A DNA stretch of 64,000 nt from a candidate division WWE3 bacterium (GTDB lineage: Bacteria; Patescibacteriota; WWE3; UBA101185; UBA10185), in NCBI GenBank assembly GCA_052035175.1, contig JBPOHV010000001.1:622428-686427 (forward strand), in the 5' to 3' direction. The position numbers and the translations under genes are program-made. Under the pieces are notes generated by a model. It ran no database searches, was not told where the DNA came from, and saw nothing but the letters and a program-made list of their open reading frames with translations. Each line of letters starts with the position of its first letter. The stretch's first letter is position 1. Of this stretch, positions 6,962 through 31,293 are shown one piece after another.

Positions 6962-8551
6962 GTGATTATGAACCAAGACAAACCATTAAAATTTTCTCAG
7001 TCTTACCCAGTAATTGCACAATCAAAACTATTTGGCACACGATATGAAGTAAATAAAATACTCAAACAAAACGCAGAGAAAGTATTTTTAAAAAAGCTAT
7101 CTCAAATATTTCCAGCAATTAATATAAAAACTGAAATCATAGCTACCACATATTTTGAGCCTATACTTATGTTTGAGCCAAAAAAGTCATGCATCGTTAG
7201 ATATAGACAAAGAACAGACTTTGACACAAAAAATCAAAAATACCATATACCAAAAAAATGGGTTTTTGATGGCCCTGGGACATTGGAAGTGAAGCTGCGT
7301 GATAATGCGGAAAGGGGCAATGTTGATAAACAAGGAACATTTTTTCCAAACACAAAAGACATAAACATTAAAACATTTTTAAACCAACCAACACAGTCAA
7401 AAGTAGAAAAATATATAGAGTACGCAAATAATATGCAATACAAATGCACACTTAATAAGCACTTACGTCTTCTAGACCCCAAAACCATATCAAAAATCAC
7501 TGAAAAACTTTATCCGTATGCTACAAGGTTAAATATACGATATACGCTAGAAACAAAAACTACCGAAGAAATTCGTATTACATTTGAGACTAACCCAGTA
7601 TTTTATATATACCCAATATATCATAAAACAGGAGACACCAATACAAAACCAAAGCAATTTATTGCTGATATTGGAGAAGTTTCTAACCGAACAAAGATTG
7701 AAGTAAAAACTGAGACAAAAGCTAAAAACAGCGAGATTTATAAAAACTTGGAAAAAGAACTACGTAAGTTTCAACACCCTACAAATACATATACTGATGT
7801 ACCTTATGCAAATATGATTGTCAAAGCATCGTTGAAAACTGGTACATTGATAAATGAAGCGCCTAATATAGAAATTGAATCAAAAGCAAGTCTACCCAAT
7901 CAAACAAACATAGCAGAGTTAATCGAGACTATACGTAATGAATTGCTAAAGACTAAAAATCCAAAATATTTACTTTTTTTAACTGACCCTCGTGTAGGCT
8001 TGAGAGAATATCCAAATGTTAAAAGAACTATATTTGGATACCAAGACGAAAATGATCAATGGCATGAAGCAGTGAGATTAAATCAAGACATATCAAAAAA
8101 GACTGGATACGTATCACTTAAATGGAAGTCTGATGCTAATACTATTAATAAAACCCTTGTAAGAAAAGAGGTTACTGAAACCTTTGACCACAAGCTTACA
8201 CATAGAGAAGTAATAGAACTTGTAAAAAAACGCTTGGGGAAAAAAGTAGTGCCGCTTGGTAGCTTTACAAAGACCAAGTATAGAATACTTGTACAAGATA
8301 CAAATGGCAGAAATTTTAATATTTCAGTAGATAAAGTTAATATCTACAATAGCAGCATCTGCATGGTTCAGCTTGAATCAGAATACATTCATACAGTTGT
8401 AGCAAACAATGACCTACCAAATACATCCGTGTCTGAAGCATGTGAATCATGTATGAAATACTTTCAAAGTTTACTTAAAAAGATAGGTGTTGTAGCTGTA
8501 CCAACAACCGAACGAAAGCTAGATTTTCTTATAAAAAACAAATTACGCTGA
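6962..8551 (+). CDS. hypothetical 529-aa protein
   Basis: Long ORF with no motif I can name. Located directly 3' of tRNA-Pro. Confidence 0.45.
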   Translation: MIMNQDKPLKFSQSYPVIAQSKLFGTRYEVNKILKQNAEKVFLKKLSQIFPAINIKTEIIATTYFEPILMFEPKKSCIVRYRQRTDFDTKNQKYHIPKKWVFDGPGTLEVKLRDNAERGNVDKQGTFFPNTKDINIKTFLNQPTQSKVEKYIEYANNMQYKCTLNKHLRLLDPKTISKITEKLYPYATRLNIRYTLETKTTEEIRITFETNPVFYIYPIYHKTGDTNTKPKQFIADIGEVSNRTKIEVKTETKAKNSEIYKNLEKELRKFQHPTNTYTDVPYANMIVKASLKTGTLINEAPNIEIESKASLPNQTNIAELIETIRNELLKTKNPKYLLFLTDPRVGLREYPNVKRTIFGYQDENDQWHEAVRLNQDISKKTGYVSLKWKSDANTINKTLVRKEVTETFDHKLTHREVIELVKKRLGKKVVPLGSFTKTKYRILVQDTNGRNFNISVDKVNIYNSSICMVQLESEYIHTVVANNDLPNTSVSEACESCMKYFQSLLKKIGVVAVPTTERKLDFLIKNKLR

Positions 8552-8615
8552 TATTCTAGTATTCTTATATTCTAGTATTTTTATATTCTAGTACTTTTAC
8601 TATTCTAATATTCAT
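8552..8615. repeat. 16-bp tandem repeat (ATATTCTAGTAYTTTT x3 plus a degenerate unit)
   Basis: Direct tandem units start at the stop codon of the 529-aa gene. Confidence 0.6.
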
Positions 8616-8914
8616 AGAATTTGCATACTATTAATATTTAAAAACATAATTTATAACGATAAATATTTCGTCAGCTTAACGCACATTCAAAATTATTTCT
8701 AACAACCTTTTCTATAGTACTAATTGGAATTTTTGTATACGTAATAACAGACCGGCAATCCCCTTATCAACCAAAAGTATTCACACCTGCACAACGTACA
8801 AAAACGCAAAACTGCAAAGCTAATGGACCACTCCCTGATCGAGAATGTACACCAGGAGCGGTCTTTGAAAATGCGACAAAAGAAATAGTATGCGTTAGTG
8901 GATATTCAAAAACA

Positions 8915-9244
8915 GTGAGAATCGTATCTCAAAGTACCAAAGAAGCCATTTATAAAGCATATGGAATAACATCGCGCAAACCAAGACAATACCAAGTAGA
9001 TCATTTTGTGAGTTTGACACTAGGCGGTTCTAACGAACTCGCTAACTTGTGGCCCGAAGCAGCAGAACCATTTCCTGGTTACAACGAAAAGAATTTGATC
9101 ACAAATTACTTACACGAACTAGTCTGCAAAGGTGATCTGCCTCTAAACCAAGCTCAATATATGATTTCATGGGGCTGGGTTGACACATATAATTCTTTGA
9201 AACCAAAAAATCCATTTTTCGAAATTTACAAGCTCATGAAATGA
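8915..9244 (+). CDS. HNH-motif nuclease family protein (possibly truncated or using a non-canonical start)
   Basis: YQVDHFVSLTLGGSNELANLWPE fits an HNH/His-Me finger. The same frame is open from 8702 and encodes a TM helix and Cys-rich segment, but has no ATG, GTG or TTG until 8915. Confidence 0.45.
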   Translation: MRIVSQSTKEAIYKAYGITSRKPRQYQVDHFVSLTLGGSNELANLWPEAAEPFPGYNEKNLITNYLHELVCKGDLPLNQAQYMISWGWVDTYNSLKPKNPFFEIYKLMK

Positions 9245-9290
9245 AATATCAATATTTAACTTTTTAGTATCAAGCGTATAATTCATTCAT

Positions 9291-9767
9291 ATGAAATTGA
9301 ATCACGAACAAATACGTAATATTGTTTTTGGCGTAGAAGACAGCATAGTTTCTACAACAGGAGTTCTATTTGGAATTGCGTCGGTACAAGGCTATAACTT
9401 TAAGCAAATAGCAATAGTCGGACTTGTATTAGTAGCCGTAGAAGCAATTTCGATGGGTGTCGGGTCATTTTTGTCTGAAACGTCTGCACAAGAAGTAGAA
9501 AAGTACAAAAATCAAACACCTTTCTTAGACGGCATTTTAATGTTTTTTTCATATTTTATGACAGGAGTAATCATAGTTATGCCTTATATAATCCTCAATT
9601 CAAACAATGCAAGATATTATTCGGCAGCGCTAGCATTTTTATTATTAGGTTTATTAGGCTATATGCCACAACGAAAACTAAAATCGGCGTTACGTATGTT
9701 GTTTCTAGGTGGTATGGCACTCATTGCTGGTTACACTATTGCCAATTATCTAAATCTCAATTTGTAA
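9291..9767 (+). CDS. VIT1/CCC1-family membrane protein (putative Fe/Mn transporter)
   Basis: FGVEDSIVSTTGVLFG motif and multiple TM helices. Confidence 0.6.
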   Translation: MKLNHEQIRNIVFGVEDSIVSTTGVLFGIASVQGYNFKQIAIVGLVLVAVEAISMGVGSFLSETSAQEVEKYKNQTPFLDGILMFFSYFMTGVIIVMPYIILNSNNARYYSAALAFLLLGLLGYMPQRKLKSALRMLFLGGMALIAGYTIANYLNLNL

Positions 9768-11720: not shown

Positions 11721-11743
11721 GAGACCAGGTCAGACCTGGTCTC
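11721..11743. repeat. tRNA-associated palindromic repeat (perfect palindrome GAGACCAGGTC-A-GACCTGGTCTC)
   Basis: Lies 22 nt upstream of the tRNA-Leu(TAG) 5' end, overlapping its inferred -35 region. Confidence 0.8.
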
Positions 11744-15990: not shown

Positions 15991-16067
15991 GGGCTCATAG
16001 CTCAGATGGTTAGAGCGTTGCATTGACATTGCAGAGGTCTCTGGTTCGATTCCAGATGAGCCCACCA
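15991..16067 (+). tRNA. tRNA-Val(GAC)
   Basis: Acceptor GGGCTCA/TGAGCCC, anticodon loop TTGACAT, T-arm TCTGG-TTCGATT-CCAGA. CCA is encoded. Confidence 0.8.
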
Positions 16068-19299: not shown

Positions 19300-20049
19300 C
19301 TAAAGAGGCTGAACCAACTCGGCTATCTTTACAGCATCTTCAAGCTTATAAACACCTATACGTGTGCGTAACAACGACGTTAAAACAGCGGATGTGTTTA
19401 AATATTGGCCAAGATCGTGTGCAAGTGACCGTATATAAGTACCGCTACCGCATACTACTTTTAGAGATAAAATAGGTAAGTTTACTAACTTTTCGTCGAT
19501 TAAAATCTCAGTTTCAACAAAGTCTATAATGTCGATTTTATAAATGTGTACTCTTTTAATTGGTAAATCTACATGTGTTAATAAATTATTTCTAGCTAAA
19601 TCGTAAAGTTTTTTACCTTTAACTTTGACTGCTGAATAAGGAGGAACTGTTTGATCGATGTCTCCTATAAATTTTGAAAGCGCAGATTGAATGCGCATTA
19701 AATCTAGATTTGCCCCTTTAACAAAAGAAATTTCTGATGAATCAAGGTCATAAGTAGGAGAATCAACTCCAAACGCTATTTTTGCTATATATTCTTTGTC
19801 GTAAGATAAAAAGTCATTTTGCTTTTTGGTATCTTGCTCTGTCAAAACCACCAAAACTCCCTCAGCCGCTGGATCAAGTGTTCCTGCGTGACCAATCCGG
19901 CGAGTATGCAAAACACCTCGTAATTTGGCCACAACGTCAAATGACGTCCAACCTCTTTCTTTATAAATATTTATAATCACACTGGCATTATATGCTAATA
20001 TGGGCGTAGATAAAATTCCCTGCCTACAATTAATATGGTGCCTGAGCAA
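19300..20049 (-). CDS. truB: tRNA pseudouridine(55) synthase
   Basis: GHAGTLDPAAEGVLVV catalytic motif. Confidence 0.8.
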   Translation of the reverse strand: MLRHHINCRQGILSTPILAYNASVIINIYKERGWTSFDVVAKLRGVLHTRRIGHAGTLDPAAEGVLVVLTEQDTKKQNDFLSYDKEYIAKIAFGVDSPTYDLDSSEISFVKGANLDLMRIQSALSKFIGDIDQTVPPYSAVKVKGKKLYDLARNNLLTHVDLPIKRVHIYKIDIIDFVETEILIDEKLVNLPILSLKVVCGSGTYIRSLAHDLGQYLNTSAVLTSLLRTRIGVYKLEDAVKIAELVQPL

Positions 20050-25306: not shown

Positions 25307-27250
25307 ATGAAAATACCTGTTGAATGGTTATCTGAATACATAAAAATAAATAAGACGCCAAAAGAACTAGCGCAAGACTTTACAGCGGTTGGATTGATGC
25401 TTGATAAGTATGATGAAAAAAACAGTGTACTCGATCTAGAACACCGCATGGATCGCTCTGATTGGCTTTCTATATTAGGGTGTGCTAGAGATTTGGCAGC
25501 ATATAACAAAACTGAACTAAGATATCCAAAAGCTTACTTAGCAGATTTACCAAAGATTCCTGAAAGTGAGCAAGTGCAAATAAATGTAGAAGGAACTGAT
25601 TTTGTTAATAGATTTTATACACGTATTTTCAAAAACATAAAAATACAAGATTCTCCAGATTGGCTGAAAAAGCGATTGGAAGCATATGGTTTACCTTCTA
25701 TAAATAATATTGTAGATATAACCAATTATGTAATGGTCGAATACGGACAACCAATGCACGCACACGACTTGGACAAAATGCAAACAAAAGAGATTACTTT
25801 CAGACACGCAAAACCTGGTGAAAAGATTGTAACCTTGCTAGGACAAGAGATAGAACTCGACTCTAATACTTGGATAACAACAAACAACAATTTACCTACA
25901 GGCGTAGCTGGAATTGTAGGTGGAAAACAAGTAGCAATAGATGCGACAACAAAAAATATTGTTTTGGATTCTGGAAATTATAATCAAACAACAATTAGGC
26001 ATACATCAAGAAACATTAAAATAACCAATGAAACTGTTTTGCGCACAGATAAGTTTTTGCACGCGCACAACAATGAACTTGCAATAAAAAGAGCAACTCA
26101 GCTCATACTAGAACTGGCAGGCGGGGACGCTTTTGAAAATTTCGACTATTATCCAACGAGGCAAGGCCTGACCAAGCAACAGCTTAGATATAGCAGACTA
26201 GTAAAAATTGGCGGTATGCATTTTTCAGACGCTGAAATTGAAGATATTTTAACGAGATTAGAATACAAAGTATTATCAAAAAAAGAAGCTGAAGATAATA
26301 CAAAGTTATGGGAACTCGAAGTACCTTATTTTAGAACAGACGTCCAAGTCGAAGACGACATTGTCGCAGATATATTGCGAATAAACGATTACAACAAAAT
26401 ACCAGCCGCATCGATAGACATGGCACCACCATCAGAGATAACACCTGCGGCATATAAATTTGAACAACTATTAAAAGATGAATTGGTAAAATTAGGTCTT
26501 GACGAACATATAACTGCCCCAATGATACCTATCGACAAACTTAACACCGAGCAAGTAACGATTTTGAGTAGCCTGAGCGCAGACAGACAAGGTCTGAGAA
26601 CAAATGTATATACTACGTTGAAAGCTGCTATCGACACTTATAAAAAGCACAATTTACATGAAATAGGGGTATTTGAAATAGGAAATACTTTTCACAAAAC
26701 TGGGAATGGTTCAAAACACGAAGACTATTTAGAAAAAAAGGAAGTAGAAATAATATACGAAAATACTCAGATGAACGTGAAAGAAAACTCAATCAAACTG
26801 AGACAAATTTTAGCAAGCTTATTAACTACTTTGGGAATCGCTAACTACTATCTAGAAAAAGAAGGTCAAAATGTGTGTATAAAATCACAAAGTCAAAATA
26901 CTTTGGGAATACTCACACATACGCACGCTACCTTGGCGATTGATACGTTGCTACTTGAGTATAAAAAACCAAGGTTAGCTATTTCTGAAATGCAAAACTT
27001 TACCAACTTTGATATTTCTTTGGTTATGAATCTAGAGCAACAATTTGGTGCGATATATAAATCTATTAAAGATTTTGATCAAAATATTGTTGATGTCGTT
27101 GTTGCTGAAGACTACATTGGTGCAAATGTCGAACAAGGCAAAAAAGCTGTGTTGGTTCAAATTACGCATAAATTAGCTGATACTTCAGAAGCACGAGTTA
27201 AGCTTTTGGAACATTTGGTTAAAACTTTTAATATTTCTCACCGCAGTTAA
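25307..27250 (+). CDS. pheT: phenylalanyl-tRNA synthetase beta subunit (short form)
   Basis: Its position after pheS, the B3/B4 and B5-like regions, and its length of 647 aa. Confidence 0.85.
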   Translation: MKIPVEWLSEYIKINKTPKELAQDFTAVGLMLDKYDEKNSVLDLEHRMDRSDWLSILGCARDLAAYNKTELRYPKAYLADLPKIPESEQVQINVEGTDFVNRFYTRIFKNIKIQDSPDWLKKRLEAYGLPSINNIVDITNYVMVEYGQPMHAHDLDKMQTKEITFRHAKPGEKIVTLLGQEIELDSNTWITTNNNLPTGVAGIVGGKQVAIDATTKNIVLDSGNYNQTTIRHTSRNIKITNETVLRTDKFLHAHNNELAIKRATQLILELAGGDAFENFDYYPTRQGLTKQQLRYSRLVKIGGMHFSDAEIEDILTRLEYKVLSKKEAEDNTKLWELEVPYFRTDVQVEDDIVADILRINDYNKIPAASIDMAPPSEITPAAYKFEQLLKDELVKLGLDEHITAPMIPIDKLNTEQVTILSSLSADRQGLRTNVYTTLKAAIDTYKKHNLHEIGVFEIGNTFHKTGNGSKHEDYLEKKEVEIIYENTQMNVKENSIKLRQILASLLTTLGIANYYLEKEGQNVCIKSQSQNTLGILTHTHATLAIDTLLLEYKKPRLAISEMQNFTNFDISLVMNLEQQFGAIYKSIKDFDQNIVDVVVAEDYIGANVEQGKKAVLVQITHKLADTSEARVKLLEHLVKTFNISHRS

Positions 27251-27273
27251 GGACCTGGTCAGACCTGGTCTAG
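27247..27273. repeat. 27-bp inverted-repeat end (left) TTAAGGACCTGGTCAGACCTGGTCTAG
   Basis: Perfect reverse complement of 28593-28619. It overlaps the pheT stop codon. Confidence 0.9.
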
Positions 27274-27377
27274 TGTTCATAAATATGTTATCGTCTCATC
27301 GTAGGTTTTGTGAGCAGCTAATCCCGCGGCCCGGGAAGTAGCTGTCTTAATCAACACAAGACCTGCAACACCAGATG

Positions 27378-27440
27378 GGAACAGTAGCTTCAAAGTGACG
27401 TTTGTCGCACCTCCCATCTGGTTTTTCTTTTTTTTGCACT
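27378..27440 (+). terminator. rho-independent terminator (likely end of the thrS-pheT operon)
   Basis: CCAGATGGGA ... TCCCATCTGG 10-bp stem followed by TTTTTCTTTTTTTTG. Confidence 0.55.
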
Positions 27441-27578
27441 TCCGAGACAATCATAGTAATATCCCAACAGCTAAAGCAGTGGCGAGATATGTGTAGGCGA
27501 AAGCCAGCAAGCCGCGAATCGCGGAACACTAATCTCCCTCTGCTTTAGCACACTCGTTTAAAGGTTAAACCTTCATAT

Positions 27579-27607
27579 TTGCTTATTTTAAAAGTTTTGT
27601 ATAGAAT
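27579..27607 (+). promoter_or_regulatory. putative sigma70 promoter for the tRNA-like gene at 27621
   Basis: TTGCTT, 17-nt spacer, TAGAAT. Confidence 0.4.
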
Positions 27608-27620
27608 GCACTCCATCGCC

Positions 27621-27692
27621 GGAGATGTAGCTCAATTGGGAGAGCACCGAGCTTTTGCTCGTAGGTTGCAGGTTCGAGTCCCGCCATTTCCA
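27621..27692 (+). tRNA. tRNA-like gene, anticodon region CTTTTG (Lys-TTT-like), apparent 6-nt anticodon loop, no encoded CCA
   Basis: Acceptor GGAGATG/CATTTCC pairs at all 7 positions with one G-U, and the D-arm GCTC-AATTGGGA-GAGC is canonical. The T-arm GCAGG-TTCGAGT-CCCGC has one mismatch. The anticodon stem CCGAG/CTCGT leaves only 6 loop nucleotides. Confidence 0.45.
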
Positions 27693-27960
27693 TTCGAGTG
27701 CACAACAGGTAGAACGTCTCCTATCATGTTGTGCGCTCGTGTAGGGCTGACAAGGTGATGCGCTCGCATCATTAACCTTGTCAGCCCTCCTCCAAATTCT
27801 TCACATACACCACTTACGTGATACTATTCAAACATTAAAATGTGCAAGCGGGAAACTATATGCACATACGGAGTGAAGCTTAGAAATGCTCGGTCAGGCA
27901 TCGGGGATTTTATTCTAGCTTCACTCCTTTGCTTTCTAAACACCCAACTTTAAGATTTGA

Positions 27961-27989
27961 TTGACCTATAGTTGTGGTGTTGTTATACT
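27961..27989 (+). promoter_or_regulatory. near-consensus sigma70 promoter
   Basis: TTGACC, 17-nt spacer, TATACT. Confidence 0.5.
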
Positions 27990-27996
27990 AGCGTTT

Positions 27997-28085
27997 GATA
28001 AACTGTGCCCAAGAAACTTGGACACAGTATCGTTGGGGCATTGCTTCGCCGCAAGGCACAGGAAAAGCAATGCCCCCATTTTCTT
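27997..28085 (+). ncRNA. candidate small RNA or structured tRNA leader
   Basis: Directly downstream of the consensus promoter. Ends in GGGGCATTGC...GCAATGCCCC (10-bp stem) followed by CATTTTCTTT, which abuts the tRNA at 28087. Confidence 0.3.
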
Positions 28086-28086
28086 T

Positions 28087-28160
28087 AGGGATGTGGCGCA
28101 ATTGGAAGACGCGTCGGACTTATAATCCGAATTTTGCGGGTTCGAAGCCCGTCATCCCTA
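28087..28160 (+). tRNA. candidate tRNA-Ile(TAT), no encoded CCA
   Basis: Acceptor AGGGATG/CATCCCT, anticodon stem TCGGA/TCCGA with loop CTTATAA, T-arm GCGGG-TTCGAAG-CCCGT. The D-arm is irregular (3-bp stem, 11-nt loop). Confidence 0.5.
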
Positions 28161-28261
28161 TATAGCCTACAAGAACAAACGTCTCTCTTGTAGACTTACT
28201 GGATGCATTTGGTGATAGCCTCCTTCTATCTTCTAATGCATCCAGTTTATTCAAATGTTAT

Positions 28262-28288
28262 TTAAGGACCTGGTCAGACCTGGTCTAA
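28262..28288. repeat. internal direct copy of the 27-bp repeat (TTAAGGACCTGGTCAGACCTGGTCTAA)
   Basis: 26 of 27 positions identical to the left end copy. Confidence 0.9.
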
Positions 28289-28400
28289 TATTTATAAATC
28301 CCACGTCTTAGGTTAATAGCTTATTTTTTTTAATAGATTGTTTTTTTAATGGACAAGTTTGCCTTTTGTTCGGGTACTTAGTATAATCCAAGACATAAAA

Positions 28401-28471
28401 GGCGGTATAGCTCAGCGGGAGAGCACCGGGCGACAACCCGGAAGTCCGTGGTCCGACTCCACGTGCCGCCA
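28401..28471 (+). tRNA. tRNA-like gene, anticodon region CGACAA, apparent 6-nt loop, unusual T-loop TCCGACT, no encoded CCA
   Basis: Acceptor GGCGGTA/TGCCGCC, D-arm GCTC-AGCGGGA-GAGC, anticodon stem CCGGG/CCCGG enclosing 6 nt, T-stem CGTGG/CCACG. Confidence 0.45.
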
Positions 28472-28592
28472 ATCCGGAGTATATTATGCGGTCGTAACCA
28501 ATCGTTCCGCTTATATACTCTAGAGTAGAGTGAACTAAGGGCCTTACCTAAGGCGTTCGCCTTTAGTTCACTCTAATTTTCTTTATTGGAAA

Positions 28593-28619
28593 CTAGACCA
28601 GGTCTGACCAGGTCCTTAA
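28593..28619. repeat. 27-bp inverted-repeat end (right), exact reverse complement of 27247-27273
   Basis: CTAGACCAGGTCTGACCAGGTCCTTAA. Abuts the PBP1A stop codon. Confidence 0.9.
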
Positions 28620-28620
28620 A

Positions 28621-31293
28621 TTACTCCAGAACCCAGCCTTTAATATTTAAATCAACGCTATCTGAACCTTCGTTACCGTCATCGTCTTCGGCTTCTACTT
28701 TAAATGTGTGATTGCCCAATTGATTTTTATTAAACGTAAAGTTATAACCATACGGCGCTGACTTATCTGTTGCAACCTCATTACCATCCATATATATTTT
28801 GATACGCTCAATATCGTTGTATGCCGATATTTCAACATTAATTCTAAAATCTAGTGGAACGTCGTCACCATTTTCTACGCCTACAATAGAAACATTAACA
28901 TCATCTTTGTTTGAAACTTCGTTTCCGTCAAACTCTAACTTACTAACCATTTGAGGAGGGAAATATTTATCATCACCACTAAAGTTCTCTTTTAACCAAC
29001 TATCTACATAAGTCTGCCACAATGAAACTTCTGGTTTTATTTTGATAAATGTTTTGACTTCTGTTTCATCTGCATCTCTACATTCATTATTTGCTATACG
29101 ACCATCAATTTTGCATATTTCTATTTTTTGATACCAATCGCTCACCGAAGTAGGCTCGGTACCTTTTACAAACCATTCTTCGCGTGTGGCTTCCTCACCA
29201 GTAGGTAATCCACCTGTCAAACGGTCAACTTTGATCTTTTGTACATTTTCTGGAGATTCAAACTTTTCTTCTTCTTTATCTTTTAAATATTCAACAAAGA
29301 AATTATGCCAAATAGGTGTCGCACCAGTTATACCAGAAGAAATATACTGGTTTAAAGGCTCGTTGTTGTTGTTTCCAACCCAAGTACCAACGACAAGCGA
29401 AGGAGTATACCCAACAGCATAATTATCACGCTTATCATTGGTTGTACCTGTCTTAACTGCTACTTGATGACCAGGAATATTTAGTAAACTACTAGGACCA
29501 AACGCATCACTACGTGCGCCATTATCAGATAAAATATCTGAAATCAAAAAAGCAACACCATCGCTTAGTGCACGTTTGCCACCAGCGTCTGTCCACTTGT
29601 ACAAGGTATTACCAGATGAATCTTTTACTTCTAATATTGGCGTAGGTTCTCGATACATGCCTTTGGATGCAAAAACAGTATATGCACCAGTCAATTGAAG
29701 TAAAGACGTTTCTGCGCCACCAAGCGTAATTGCAAGCCCATAACGAGAACGATCGGTAAATGAAGTTATACCCATTTTTTCTGCTTGATCTATCATTGTA
29801 TCTACACCTACAATCTGCAAAGCTTTTACAGCAGGAATATTCAATGAATTAGCTAGTGATTTTCGTAATGACATCGGTCCCCTAAAAGTACCATCATAAT
29901 TTACAGGCTCATAAGGTTCATCAACTTTGGCGCCAGGAAATTTTGTAGGAACATCTAAAAATGGAAACGCTGATGTATAACCCTTTTCTAGCATTGTTGC
30001 ATACGTCACTGGTTTTATCGCAGAACCAGGCTGACGAAGCGAAGTAGCTACATTTACTTGCGGTTCAAATGTACAGCTATCTTCACCAGTTATACCAGAA
30101 ATGCAATCTGCTGGTTCTGAATTCAAGAAAAATCCTTTACTACCTACCATTGCAAGAACTTGCGAAGTTTTGGAGTCTAAGGCAACTAATGCACCGTTTC
30201 CTACATTATAATTCTTTTCTTTTTCAACTTGGTCAAAAACTATTTGCTGTGCTTTATTTTGTAAATCTAAATCTAGTGTGGTTGTTACTTGTAAACCAGC
30301 TTGATCTACATAATCTTCTCCAAACATATCGGCCAAAACACTTTTGACATAAAAGACGAAATGAGGAGCATTCAATGGAACATCGGCGTCTTGAAATGCC
30401 AATTGCTCGTTTTTTGCTGCTTCATAGTCTTCGGTACTCAAAAAGTATTTATTGCCATCTTCTCCTTGCCAACCGCGTTCGTGCATCAATTGCAAAACAT
30501 AGTTTTTGCGTGATACACCTGCTTCTGGCGTATTACCAAAATAAGAATACCGAGATGGACTTTGAGGTAAACCAGCAATATATGCTGCTTCGGCAATCGT
30601 AAGGTCTTTTGGTGATTTATTAAAATAAGATCGTGCAGCAGTAAAAACCCCATAATTTTGCCCACCGTATGGAGTCTCATTCAAATACATTTGTAGTATT
30701 TCATTTTTTGTATATCTGTTTTCTAATTGTAAAGAAAGTATAAGTTCTTTGGCTTTGCGTGTAATAGTTTGTTCTTGGCTCAAAAGGGTATTTTTTACAA
30801 CTTGCTGTGTAAGCGTAGACCCGCTTTGTAAACCTTCACCCAATGCTATGTTTTTGACTGCGCGCAACATGCCCAAAAGATAAAAACCTTGATGGCTATA
30901 AAAGTTTGCGTCTTCAGCAGCTAATGTAGCGTGTATCAAGTTTGGTGAAATATCTTCGAATTTGACTAAAGTTCTATTTTTATCGCCATAAAATTCGTAT
31001 AAGATTTTGCCATTGCGATCAAAAATCTTTGTCGAAAGCTCAAAACTGCGCTCCAACAATTCATTTGGATTGGGCAATTCATACGAAAAATATGCAAAAA
31101 CAGCAAAAATTAATGTGATTGCAAAAACTAGTCCAAATAAAGACATTTTGGCCAAAAACAAAGCAATTTTTAGCTTTTTAGTTTTGTCTGTAATAAATTT
31201 CTTTGGTATAAGTCTGCTGCTAATACTAGGAGACTTTGATGATTTGCTTGGTAAGGTTGCTTTAGTTTTCTGTTGCATACGATCATTATACAA
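28621..31293 (-). CDS. class A penicillin-binding protein 1A (transglycosylase/transpeptidase) with C-terminal extension
   Basis: N-terminal TM and GT51 motifs (EDANFYSHQG, GGSTLTQQ). Transpeptidase SxxK/KTG motifs (KTGTTND). Confidence 0.9.
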   Translation of the reverse strand: MYNDRMQQKTKATLPSKSSKSPSISSRLIPKKFITDKTKKLKIALFLAKMSLFGLVFAITLIFAVFAYFSYELPNPNELLERSFELSTKIFDRNGKILYEFYGDKNRTLVKFEDISPNLIHATLAAEDANFYSHQGFYLLGMLRAVKNIALGEGLQSGSTLTQQVVKNTLLSQEQTITRKAKELILSLQLENRYTKNEILQMYLNETPYGGQNYGVFTAARSYFNKSPKDLTIAEAAYIAGLPQSPSRYSYFGNTPEAGVSRKNYVLQLMHERGWQGEDGNKYFLSTEDYEAAKNEQLAFQDADVPLNAPHFVFYVKSVLADMFGEDYVDQAGLQVTTTLDLDLQNKAQQIVFDQVEKEKNYNVGNGALVALDSKTSQVLAMVGSKGFFLNSEPADCISGITGEDSCTFEPQVNVATSLRQPGSAIKPVTYATMLEKGYTSAFPFLDVPTKFPGAKVDEPYEPVNYDGTFRGPMSLRKSLANSLNIPAVKALQIVGVDTMIDQAEKMGITSFTDRSRYGLAITLGGAETSLLQLTGAYTVFASKGMYREPTPILEVKDSSGNTLYKWTDAGGKRALSDGVAFLISDILSDNGARSDAFGPSSLLNIPGHQVAVKTGTTNDKRDNYAVGYTPSLVVGTWVGNNNNEPLNQYISSGITGATPIWHNFFVEYLKDKEEEKFESPENVQKIKVDRLTGGLPTGEEATREEWFVKGTEPTSVSDWYQKIEICKIDGRIANNECRDADETEVKTFIKIKPEVSLWQTYVDSWLKENFSGDDKYFPPQMVSKLEFDGNEVSNKDDVNVSIVGVENGDDVPLDFRINVEISAYNDIERIKIYMDGNEVATDKSAPYGYNFTFNKNQLGNHTFKVEAEDDDGNEGSDSVDLNIKGWVLE

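Follow-up and report, generated by a model that had tools for sequence, protein, structure and literature searches.

Pseudo-tRNAs with roles outside translation have been documented, and one of them, the tRNA-Other of Bacillus cereus, retains a Trp anticodon that can be read and shows phenotypes in experiments (PMC3399842). The Y RNA Yrn1 of D. radiodurans is a known non-decoding mimic, and in its model (PMC4201824) a six-base loop caps an ‘anticodon’ stem of 5 bp. Mobile tRNA arrays (L-arrays) include pseudogenes (PMC8421152), and phage tRNAs with anticodon-loop changes have been described (PMC10264068).

The present study concerns a tRNA-like gene, tl2, in a 64-kb stretch of DNA (hereafter the window, 64,000 nucleotides in full), which resembles each of these systems in part. 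Like B. cereus tRNA-Other, tl2 is tRNA-shaped, tied to horizontally acquired DNA, and predicted to stand outside translation; however, its loop is shortened, its host is a CPR bacterium, and the two sequences are unrelated. Like Yrn1 and YrlA, it is a predicted non-decoding tRNA mimic, and it shares the six-base loop of the Yrn1 model, but its cloverleaf is that of a whole tRNA, beginning and ending in the acceptor stem. The island in which it lies is, like mobile and phage tRNA arrays, a cluster of extra, apparently foreign tRNA genes that includes members with altered loops. Unlike those arrays, it holds no more than three genes, which are not joined in an operon but have separate promoters and terminators, and it is a 1.4-kb inverted-repeat element without a protein gene; moreover, tl2 is altered in loop length, not by base substitution as phage tRNAs with loop changes are. 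Compared with bacterial tRNA-Val(GAC), tl2 has the same cloverleaf dimensions, the same D-arm, a loop in which A comes after GAC, and the same A73, but it is one nucleotide short (U33), has C55 in place of U55, and does not encode CCA. Finally, the island shares with bacterial MITEs and REP-type repeats its shortness, its freedom from ORFs, perfect terminal inverted repeats, a 4-bp flanking duplication, and a repeat core that recurs in intergenic DNA. What sets it apart from MITEs and REP elements is the cargo, a complete unit of promoter, tRNA-like gene, and terminator, for which, as MITE cargo, we found no bacterial precedent in the searchable literature.

We put at roughly 0.55 the probability that tl2 is a non-decoding pseudo-tRNA carried on a 350-bp cassette, itself within a 1,365-bp insertion at the TTAA of the pheT stop codon. 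On this reading tl2 would be grouped with pseudo-tRNAs and mimics of tRNA (PMC3399842), and also with the unusual genes found in mobile tRNA arrays (PMC8421152, PMC10264068).

Results

Genomic setting and features of the island

The window is a chromosome segment of a Patescibacteria (CPR) bacterium. Among named entries, its PheT protein is matched best by ‘Patescibacteria group bacterium’ and ‘candidate division WWE3’, yet identity reaches only about 45–50%. The island is surrounded by housekeeping genes. Upstream of it lie genes for TruB and a NUDIX protein, followed by thrS, infC, rpmI, rplT, pheS, and pheT; downstream lie the convergent PBP1A gene, recG, genes for a methyltransferase, NusB, RNase III, and TrmD, and type IV pilus genes. 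The features of the island, with the means by which each was located, are as follows.

27247–27250, no strand: left TTAA, putative copy of a target-site duplication, which provides the TAA stop of pheT (sequence)
27251–27274, plus strand: left terminal inverted repeat of the 1,365-bp insertion, GGACCTGGTCAGACCTGGTCTAGT (24/24 complementary to 28592–28615)
27621–27692, plus strand: tl1, the first tRNA-like gene, Lys(UUU)-like (ARAGORN, Rfam)
28087–28160, plus strand: tRNA-Ile(UAU), canonical seven-base loop, no CCA (ARAGORN, Rfam)
28262–28265, no strand: inner TTAA, directly before the inner repeat copy (sequence)
28266–28287, plus strand: inner repeat copy in the orientation of the left one, left end of the 350-bp cassette (repeat search)
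28359–28387, plus strand: σ70-type promoter, TTGCCT-17 nt-TATAAT (consensus scan, 10/12 matches)
28401–28471, plus strand: tl2, tRNA-Val(GAC)-derived gene (sequence, ARAGORN, Rfam, fold, alignment)
28473–28524, plus strand: 3′ trailer hairpin of 52 nt, directly after the tRNA-like domain (folding)
28526–28590, plus strand: terminator-like element, a 17-bp hairpin (28526–28575) followed by the T-rich run AATTTTCTTTATT (repeat pair, folding)
28592–28615, minus strand: right terminal inverted repeat, common to the 350-bp cassette and the 1,365-bp insertion (repeat search)
28616–28619, no strand: right TTAA, second copy of the putative target-site duplication (sequence)

tl2 is a tRNA-shaped gene with a six-base anticodon loop

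From 5′ to 3′, tl2 reads GGCGGTA-TA-GCTC-AGCGGGA-GAGC-A-CCGGG-CGACAA-CCCGG-AAGTC-CGTGG-TCCGACT-CCACG-TGCCGCC-A, with acceptor, D, anticodon, and T stems of 7, 4, 5, and 5 bp and a 5-nt variable region. The initial annotation of this DNA had described every stem as perfectly paired. That description holds for the D, anticodon, and T stems, which are Watson–Crick throughout, but not for the acceptor stem, in which one pair, U6–G67, is a wobble. Its other statements about the gene stand. The anticodon loop, CGACAA, has six nucleotides and no U at all, in place of a seven-nucleotide loop with U33, as read from the sequence, from the ARAGORN call, and from the fold; the T-loop, TCCGACT (T54-C55-C56-G-A-C-T), has C at the psi55 position and thus departs from T54-U55-C56; and A73 is followed by ATCC, so that CCA is not encoded. 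The bases for tertiary contacts, U8, A14, G15–C48, G18–G19, A21, G53–C61, and A58, are all present in the sequence and the Rfam alignment, and an L-shaped fold is therefore to be expected.

Outright rejection by tRNA finders, which the initial annotation had named, together with the absence of a transcript, as counting against the gene, was looked for, and both programs accept 28401–28471. ARAGORN reports exactly this interval as ‘tRNA-???’ with a two-base anticodon (ac), that is, a six-base loop. The Rfam tRNA model RF00005, with a gathering score of 29, gives tl2 53.6 bits (E = 1.1e-8 over the whole window), the lowest tRNA-model score among the eight tRNA and tRNA-like genes of the window. 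Both the minimum-energy and the centroid fold yield a cloverleaf whose 5-bp anticodon stem closes a six-base loop (−32.6 kcal/mol, z = −2.3). In a Logan assembly of run SRR34217543, the island and its surroundings (1,501 bp) show 100% identity to the window, and the missing loop base does not fall within a homopolymer, lying between C and GAC; an error of assembly is thus unlikely. tl2 is a genuine tRNA-shaped gene.

The gene also has its own expression signals. A consensus scan recovered the promoter that the initial annotation had assigned to it, TTGCCT and TATAAT with a 17-nt spacer; an A/T-rich tract lies upstream, and 13 nt separate the end of the −10 element from the first base of tl2. 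The 200-nt unit of tl2 folds with z = −5.3. A short sequence common to two trailer hairpins of the island, AACGTCTC, was set aside as being at chance level. The promoter and the terminator-like element suggest that tl2 may be transcribed.

An insertion bounded by inverted repeats separates pheT from the PBP1A gene

The stop codon of PBP1A lies on the minus strand at 28621–28623, and 1,365 bp (27251–28615) separate it from that of pheT. This element has perfect terminal inverted repeats (24/24 nt) with TTAA on both sides, and a scan for ORFs found none of at least 61 aa in it. When the element and one TTAA are removed in silico, both ORFs are left intact with their stops 1 nt apart. Nested at its right end is the 350-bp cassette (28266–28615), with terminal inverted repeats of 22/22 nt, TTAA flanks, and tl2 as its sole cargo; the left 1,011 bp of the insertion have no right-end repeat of their own. 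The initial annotation had placed tl2 in an inverted-repeat-bounded unit at 28262–28619, and indeed a longer pair of inverted repeats, 31 nt and 97% complementary, was found at 28257–28287 and 28594–28624. Only one full copy of the cassette is present within the 64 kb.

Five copies of the repeat core, GACCWGGTCWGACCWGGTC, are present in the window against 0.01 expected by chance. Two of the copies, at 2042–2060 and 11723–11741, are solo and lie outside the island beside native tRNA-Leu genes: one is 46 nt upstream of tRNA-Leu(UAA); the other precedes tRNA-Leu(UAG) by 24 nt and is part of a 23-nt stretch, perfectly palindromic, that overlaps the −35 region. A Logan contig from the same sample breaks near the first of these, at 2042–2060, and the two Logan contigs examined for sequence past the borders of the window both stop within it. 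Metagenome contigs gave 86 single matches to the core, mostly in high-GC DNA and none island-like, and viral contigs gave one, which is unrelated. The 86 matches look like chance, which points to a motif specific to the lineage.

Three relatives (L125, L126, and L128), fetched via PheT with roughly 16–22 kb of sequence each, are distant, their PheT proteins being about 49–50% identical to that of the window. All three keep the order thrS-infC-rpmI-rplT-pheS-pheT followed by the convergent PBP1A gene. In 2/3 the 3′ ends of pheT and the PBP1A gene overlap by 4–14 nt; the third has a 182-aa ORF between the two. No tRNA genes and no copies of the repeat motif were found in the fetched 16–22 kb of any of them. 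This comparison supports the island being an insertion that is absent at the same site in three distant relatives, and because they are distant, the date of insertion is not derivable from them.

The 1,365-bp element thus appears to carry the marks of a MITE-like, transposon-like insertion. No transposase was found in a Pfam search of the about 58 ORFs of the window, and the mobility of the element, as suggested by its structure, would come from a transposase encoded elsewhere. The repeat is nearly palindromic and has solo copies beside tRNA-Leu genes, and it might alternatively be a REP-like motif or a site bound by a protein, and not a transposon end. Other classes of element were considered and rejected: the core sites do not fit integron attC sites, no integrase is nearby as expected of tRNA att-site hybrids, and no insert is present as in a group I intron-containing tRNA.

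Other cargo and structure in the island

The first tRNA-like gene, tl1, scores 55.2 bits with the Rfam tRNA model and has a promoter-like site of its own, TTGCTT-17-TAGAAT. Its loop, CTTTTG, likewise has six bases, with the missing base on the 3′ side (CUUUU-G), and CCA is not encoded; its stems contain C27–U43 and A51–C63 mismatches and a G4–U69 pair. The tRNA-Ile(UAU) has an A1–U72 pair. Among the Ile codons of 19 ORFs in the window, AUA is the most frequent (258/620, 42%), and this tRNA may be useful to the host, as judged from codon counts.

An Rfam search of the island at a relaxed threshold returned the three tRNA matches alone, with no Y RNA, tmRNA, or riboswitch. Dense predicted structure extends over the entire island, where z ranges from −4.9 to −8. 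At 27961–28085 a strong promoter-like site (TTGACC-17-TATACT) precedes a leader of ~90 nt with two hairpins, the second of which is GC-rich, is followed by TTTTCTTT, and abuts the 5′ end of tRNA-Ile; this leader could be a small RNA or an attenuator ahead of the tRNA. The segment at 27273–27445 (z = −4.9) ends in a terminator-like hairpin and T-run after pheT, and that at 27470–27549 (z = −5.4) forms one long, closed hairpin interrupted by GAAA and GAAU internal loops; no Rfam family matches either segment.

Ancestry of tl2

An alignment that took in the native Val(GAC) gene of the window, two Streptomyces Val(GAC) genes, a gene from a proteobacterial MAG, and other Val-like genes matches tl2 to tRNA-Val(GAC) genes along its full length, the sole gap falling immediately 5′ of GAC. 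The Val(GAC)-type features of tl2 are the D-arm TAGCTCAGC-GGGAGAGCACC, the loop bases C-GAC-AA, and A73. It has the A35, C36, and A73 of the Val(GAC) isoacceptor as well as its overall similarity, and the best annotated phage match of tl2 is a tRNA-Val. A derivation of tl2 from a tRNA-Val(GAC), by loss of U33, is thus supported by the alignment.

A native tRNA-Val(GAC) with an encoded CCA lies at 15991 in the window. CCA is encoded by all five ordinary tRNA genes of the window (Arg, Leu, Pro, Leu, and Val) but by none of the three island genes (tl1, tRNA-Ile(UAU), and tl2), and from this difference we infer that the cargo is probably foreign in origin. GC content is 41–42% in the island against about 36% in the window.

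Search for a family of tl2-like genes

Exact and near-exact patterns of tl2, tl1, and the tRNA-Ile gene had no match in viral contigs. A scan of a genome-contig collection with a PheT peptide also gave no match, so the source genome and its close relatives are not in that collection. A looser family pattern, a Val-type D-arm followed five bases later by YGACA (no U33), gave 17 matches across 185,579 species genomes and another 19 across viral contigs. These matches are heterogeneous. None has C55, and only two have a clean six-base loop, one in Marinobacter (L103) and one viral (L115). The Marinobacter gene (L103 1216–1287, in the isolate Marinobacter xestospongiae JCM 17469) is a cloverleaf of 50.8 bits with the loop TGACAA and a 4-nt variable region, and its neighbours, genes for an SPFH protein and a TRAP transporter, are uninformative on function. 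One of the other matches is the proteobacterial MAG gene, and the Streptomyces match (L100) differs from neighbouring Val genes solely by one C in a CCC run. The planctomycete matches are Val genes with a seven-base loop; in the tRNA-Val(GAC) genes of the Planctomycetota MAGs L094, L096, L097, and L105, the arm reads ...CTGC-TCGACAC-GCAG... with C at 33, in a register judged by eye. Ten viral matches are tRNA genes with an insert of ~50–60 nt in the anticodon region. These loci (L106 4857–4977, L111 7774–7893, L116 7423–7544, and seven similar ones) match the tRNA model over ~120 nt with 40–44 bits, and inserts of this kind hold a second T-arm-like hairpin (ACGGTTCGAGTCCGT).

A narrower pattern of the anticodon arm common to tl2 and L115 retrieved L115 only. 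The comparison with phage and plasmid tRNA elements that the initial annotation had proposed, made by BLAST with tl2, gave generic tRNA-level similarity and no close relative. Across the 185,579 genomes and the viral contigs searched, tl2 is, as far as these patterns reach, an orphan with no homologous family.

Comparison with Y RNAs

In its tRNA-like module, 5-bp stem, and six-base loop, tl2 agrees with the arm of Yrn1. The viral match L115 (IMGVR_UViG_3300032144_000004, 7494–9560) contains an ORF for Ro60 (TROVE+vWA) and, 130 nt downstream of it, a tRNA-like gene with the loop CGACAG and a poorly paired acceptor; just downstream of that gene is a permuted module of T-arm, hairpin, and D-arm that looks YrlA-type. 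No TROVE (Ro60/Rsr) domain was matched among the about 58 ORFs of the window, and a Pfam search of the same ORFs found no integrase, Ro60, anticodon nuclease, Fem-type or other tRNA-dependent transferase, or RNA-repair gene. The motif GNCGAAN0-1G is absent from the tl2 transcript (plus strand), and its three matches on both strands of the island, against about 0.8 expected, are at chance level. The long 5′/3′ stem that carries the Ro60-binding site is absent from tl2.

Discussion

In tRNAs, U33 makes the U-turn that stacks the anticodon for pairing in the A site, and the reading of triplets requires a seven-membered anticodon loop. U55 is the substrate of TruB and pairs with G18. tl2 lacks U33 with its seven-base loop as well as U55, and we therefore regard it as almost certainly non-decoding. 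In the mechanism that we propose, the cassette would supply a promoter and a terminator, giving an RNA of about 190 nt that RNase P would cleave at G1 of tl2. As all stems and nearly all bases for tertiary contacts are intact, the 71-nt domain should adopt the normal L-shape. Its six-base loop without U33 would present no triplet in the ribosomal A site, and its C55 could not be converted to pseudouridine; although a TruB gene is present in the window (19300–20049), tl2 offers it no U55 substrate. Enzymes that bind the top half of the molecule, the acceptor and T-arm, would be expected still to recognize it, among them RNase P and possibly the CCA-adding enzyme, while recognition by ValRS is uncertain. 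The product would occupy tRNA-binding proteins at most and take no part in translation.

The six-base loop might also be a feature and not damage, such that tl2, with tl1, is a selected, working tRNA mimic, a reading that we regard as possible and put forward tentatively. It might act as a decoy or sponge that draws off tRNA-targeting nucleases and further proteins with affinity for tRNA, it might pair with a Ro60-type protein in the manner of a Y RNA, or, given the neighbouring PBP1A gene, it might be an extra-ribosomal donor of amino acids. Selection would account for two genes in a 1.4-kb island that are each one loop base short at different positions (C-GAC-AA and CUUUU-G), since random inactivation would seldom strike the loop twice, and for a tl2 whose stems, promoter, and terminator are otherwise untouched. 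The six-base loop of Yrn1 (PMC4201824), the viral gene with loop CGACAG that adjoins a Ro60 ORF and a YrlA-like module, and the pseudo-tRNAs on record with roles outside translation (PMC3399842) point the same way. Selection sits less well with the orphan status of tl2 in the genomes and viral contigs searched, with the absence of a gene for Ro60, an anticodon nuclease, a Fem-type transferase, or RNA repair among the about 58 ORFs, with a GNCGAAN0-1G motif at chance level in the island, and with the two stem mismatches of tl1; moreover, the perfect repeats suggest a recent arrival, so that intact signals need no selection. A bolder form of this idea, which seems to us rather unlikely, is that tl1 and tl2 represent an undescribed kind of cargo, in which deliberately non-decoding six-base-loop mimics with their own transcription are carried by a TTAA-targeting cassette and occupy tRNA-binding proteins. 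Anticodon-nuclease decoys or Y-RNA-like partners would be examples, and the Lys(UUU)-like tl1 matches the type of the classic PrrC target. The recent arrival suggested by the perfect repeats likewise enters into the case for a dead relic of a foreign tRNA-Val, unexpressed or quickly degraded, that rides along with tRNA-Ile(UAU). A relic would explain changes at two near-invariant positions (U33 lost, U55 replaced by C), a tRNA-model score below those of the other seven genes in the window, and the orphan status; the host has a native CCA-encoding tRNA-Val(GAC) at 15991, the frequency of AUA (42% of Ile codons, 258/620) means that tRNA-Ile(UAU) could explain why the insertion is retained, and pseudogenes are known from mobile tRNA arrays (PMC8421152). 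We nevertheless consider a relic quite improbable, as the stems, promoter, and terminator of tl2 are undamaged, the gene has its own cassette apart from the Ile gene, and the same type of loop defect occurs twice in the island.

Two further readings would make tl2 an ordinary gene in function or in origin. In one, which we hold to be very improbable, it still decodes. It might pair only 4 bp of the stem, leaving a loop of eight bases for four-base or frameshift reading; it might read two bases; or some repair or editing step might restore it. A73 and GAC, which are identity elements for ValRS, are present in tl2, and ARAGORN gives similar Val-like genes (L093 and L100) eight-base loops with the anticodon ‘gaca’. 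However, the G31–C39 pair of tl2 is strong, ARAGORN and the minimum-energy fold both give it the 5-bp stem and six-base loop, U33 and U55 are absent, CCA is not encoded, and we know of no recoding signal in the host genome. The other reading supposes an ordinary tRNA-Val gene whose sequence was corrupted in sequencing or assembly. Such errors might be suspected in the Streptomyces gene with one C fewer or more in its CCC run, a difference that could equally be a real deletion, but the identical second assembly (SRR34217543), the position of the missing base outside a homopolymer, and the further, independent oddities of tl2, namely C55, the lack of CCA, and its own cassette, make an artefact scarcely credible. 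A non-decoding pseudo-tRNA on a mobile-looking cassette is therefore the reading that we prefer.

What the analysis adds is a transposon-like insertion defined with base precision between pheT and the PBP1A gene and a Val(GAC) origin for tl2. If tl2 were only a relic, the finding would be of smaller value, and it would still offer a clean, base-precise non-coding insertion between abutting essential genes in a streamlined genome. For annotation, the locus suggests that calls with a six-base loop (‘tRNA-???’) in reduced genomes can be real foreign genes and not errors, and that such calls are best left out of any tally of decoding tRNAs. Should tl2 RNA be produced and prove stable, the locus would be a compact cassette in a bacterium, resembling a DNA transposon, whose sole cargo is a gene for a tRNA-shaped RNA. 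Such a cassette would be conceptually near the tRNA-derived SINEs of eukaryotes, although reached by a different route, and CPR bacteria would join the organisms that carry pseudo-tRNAs.
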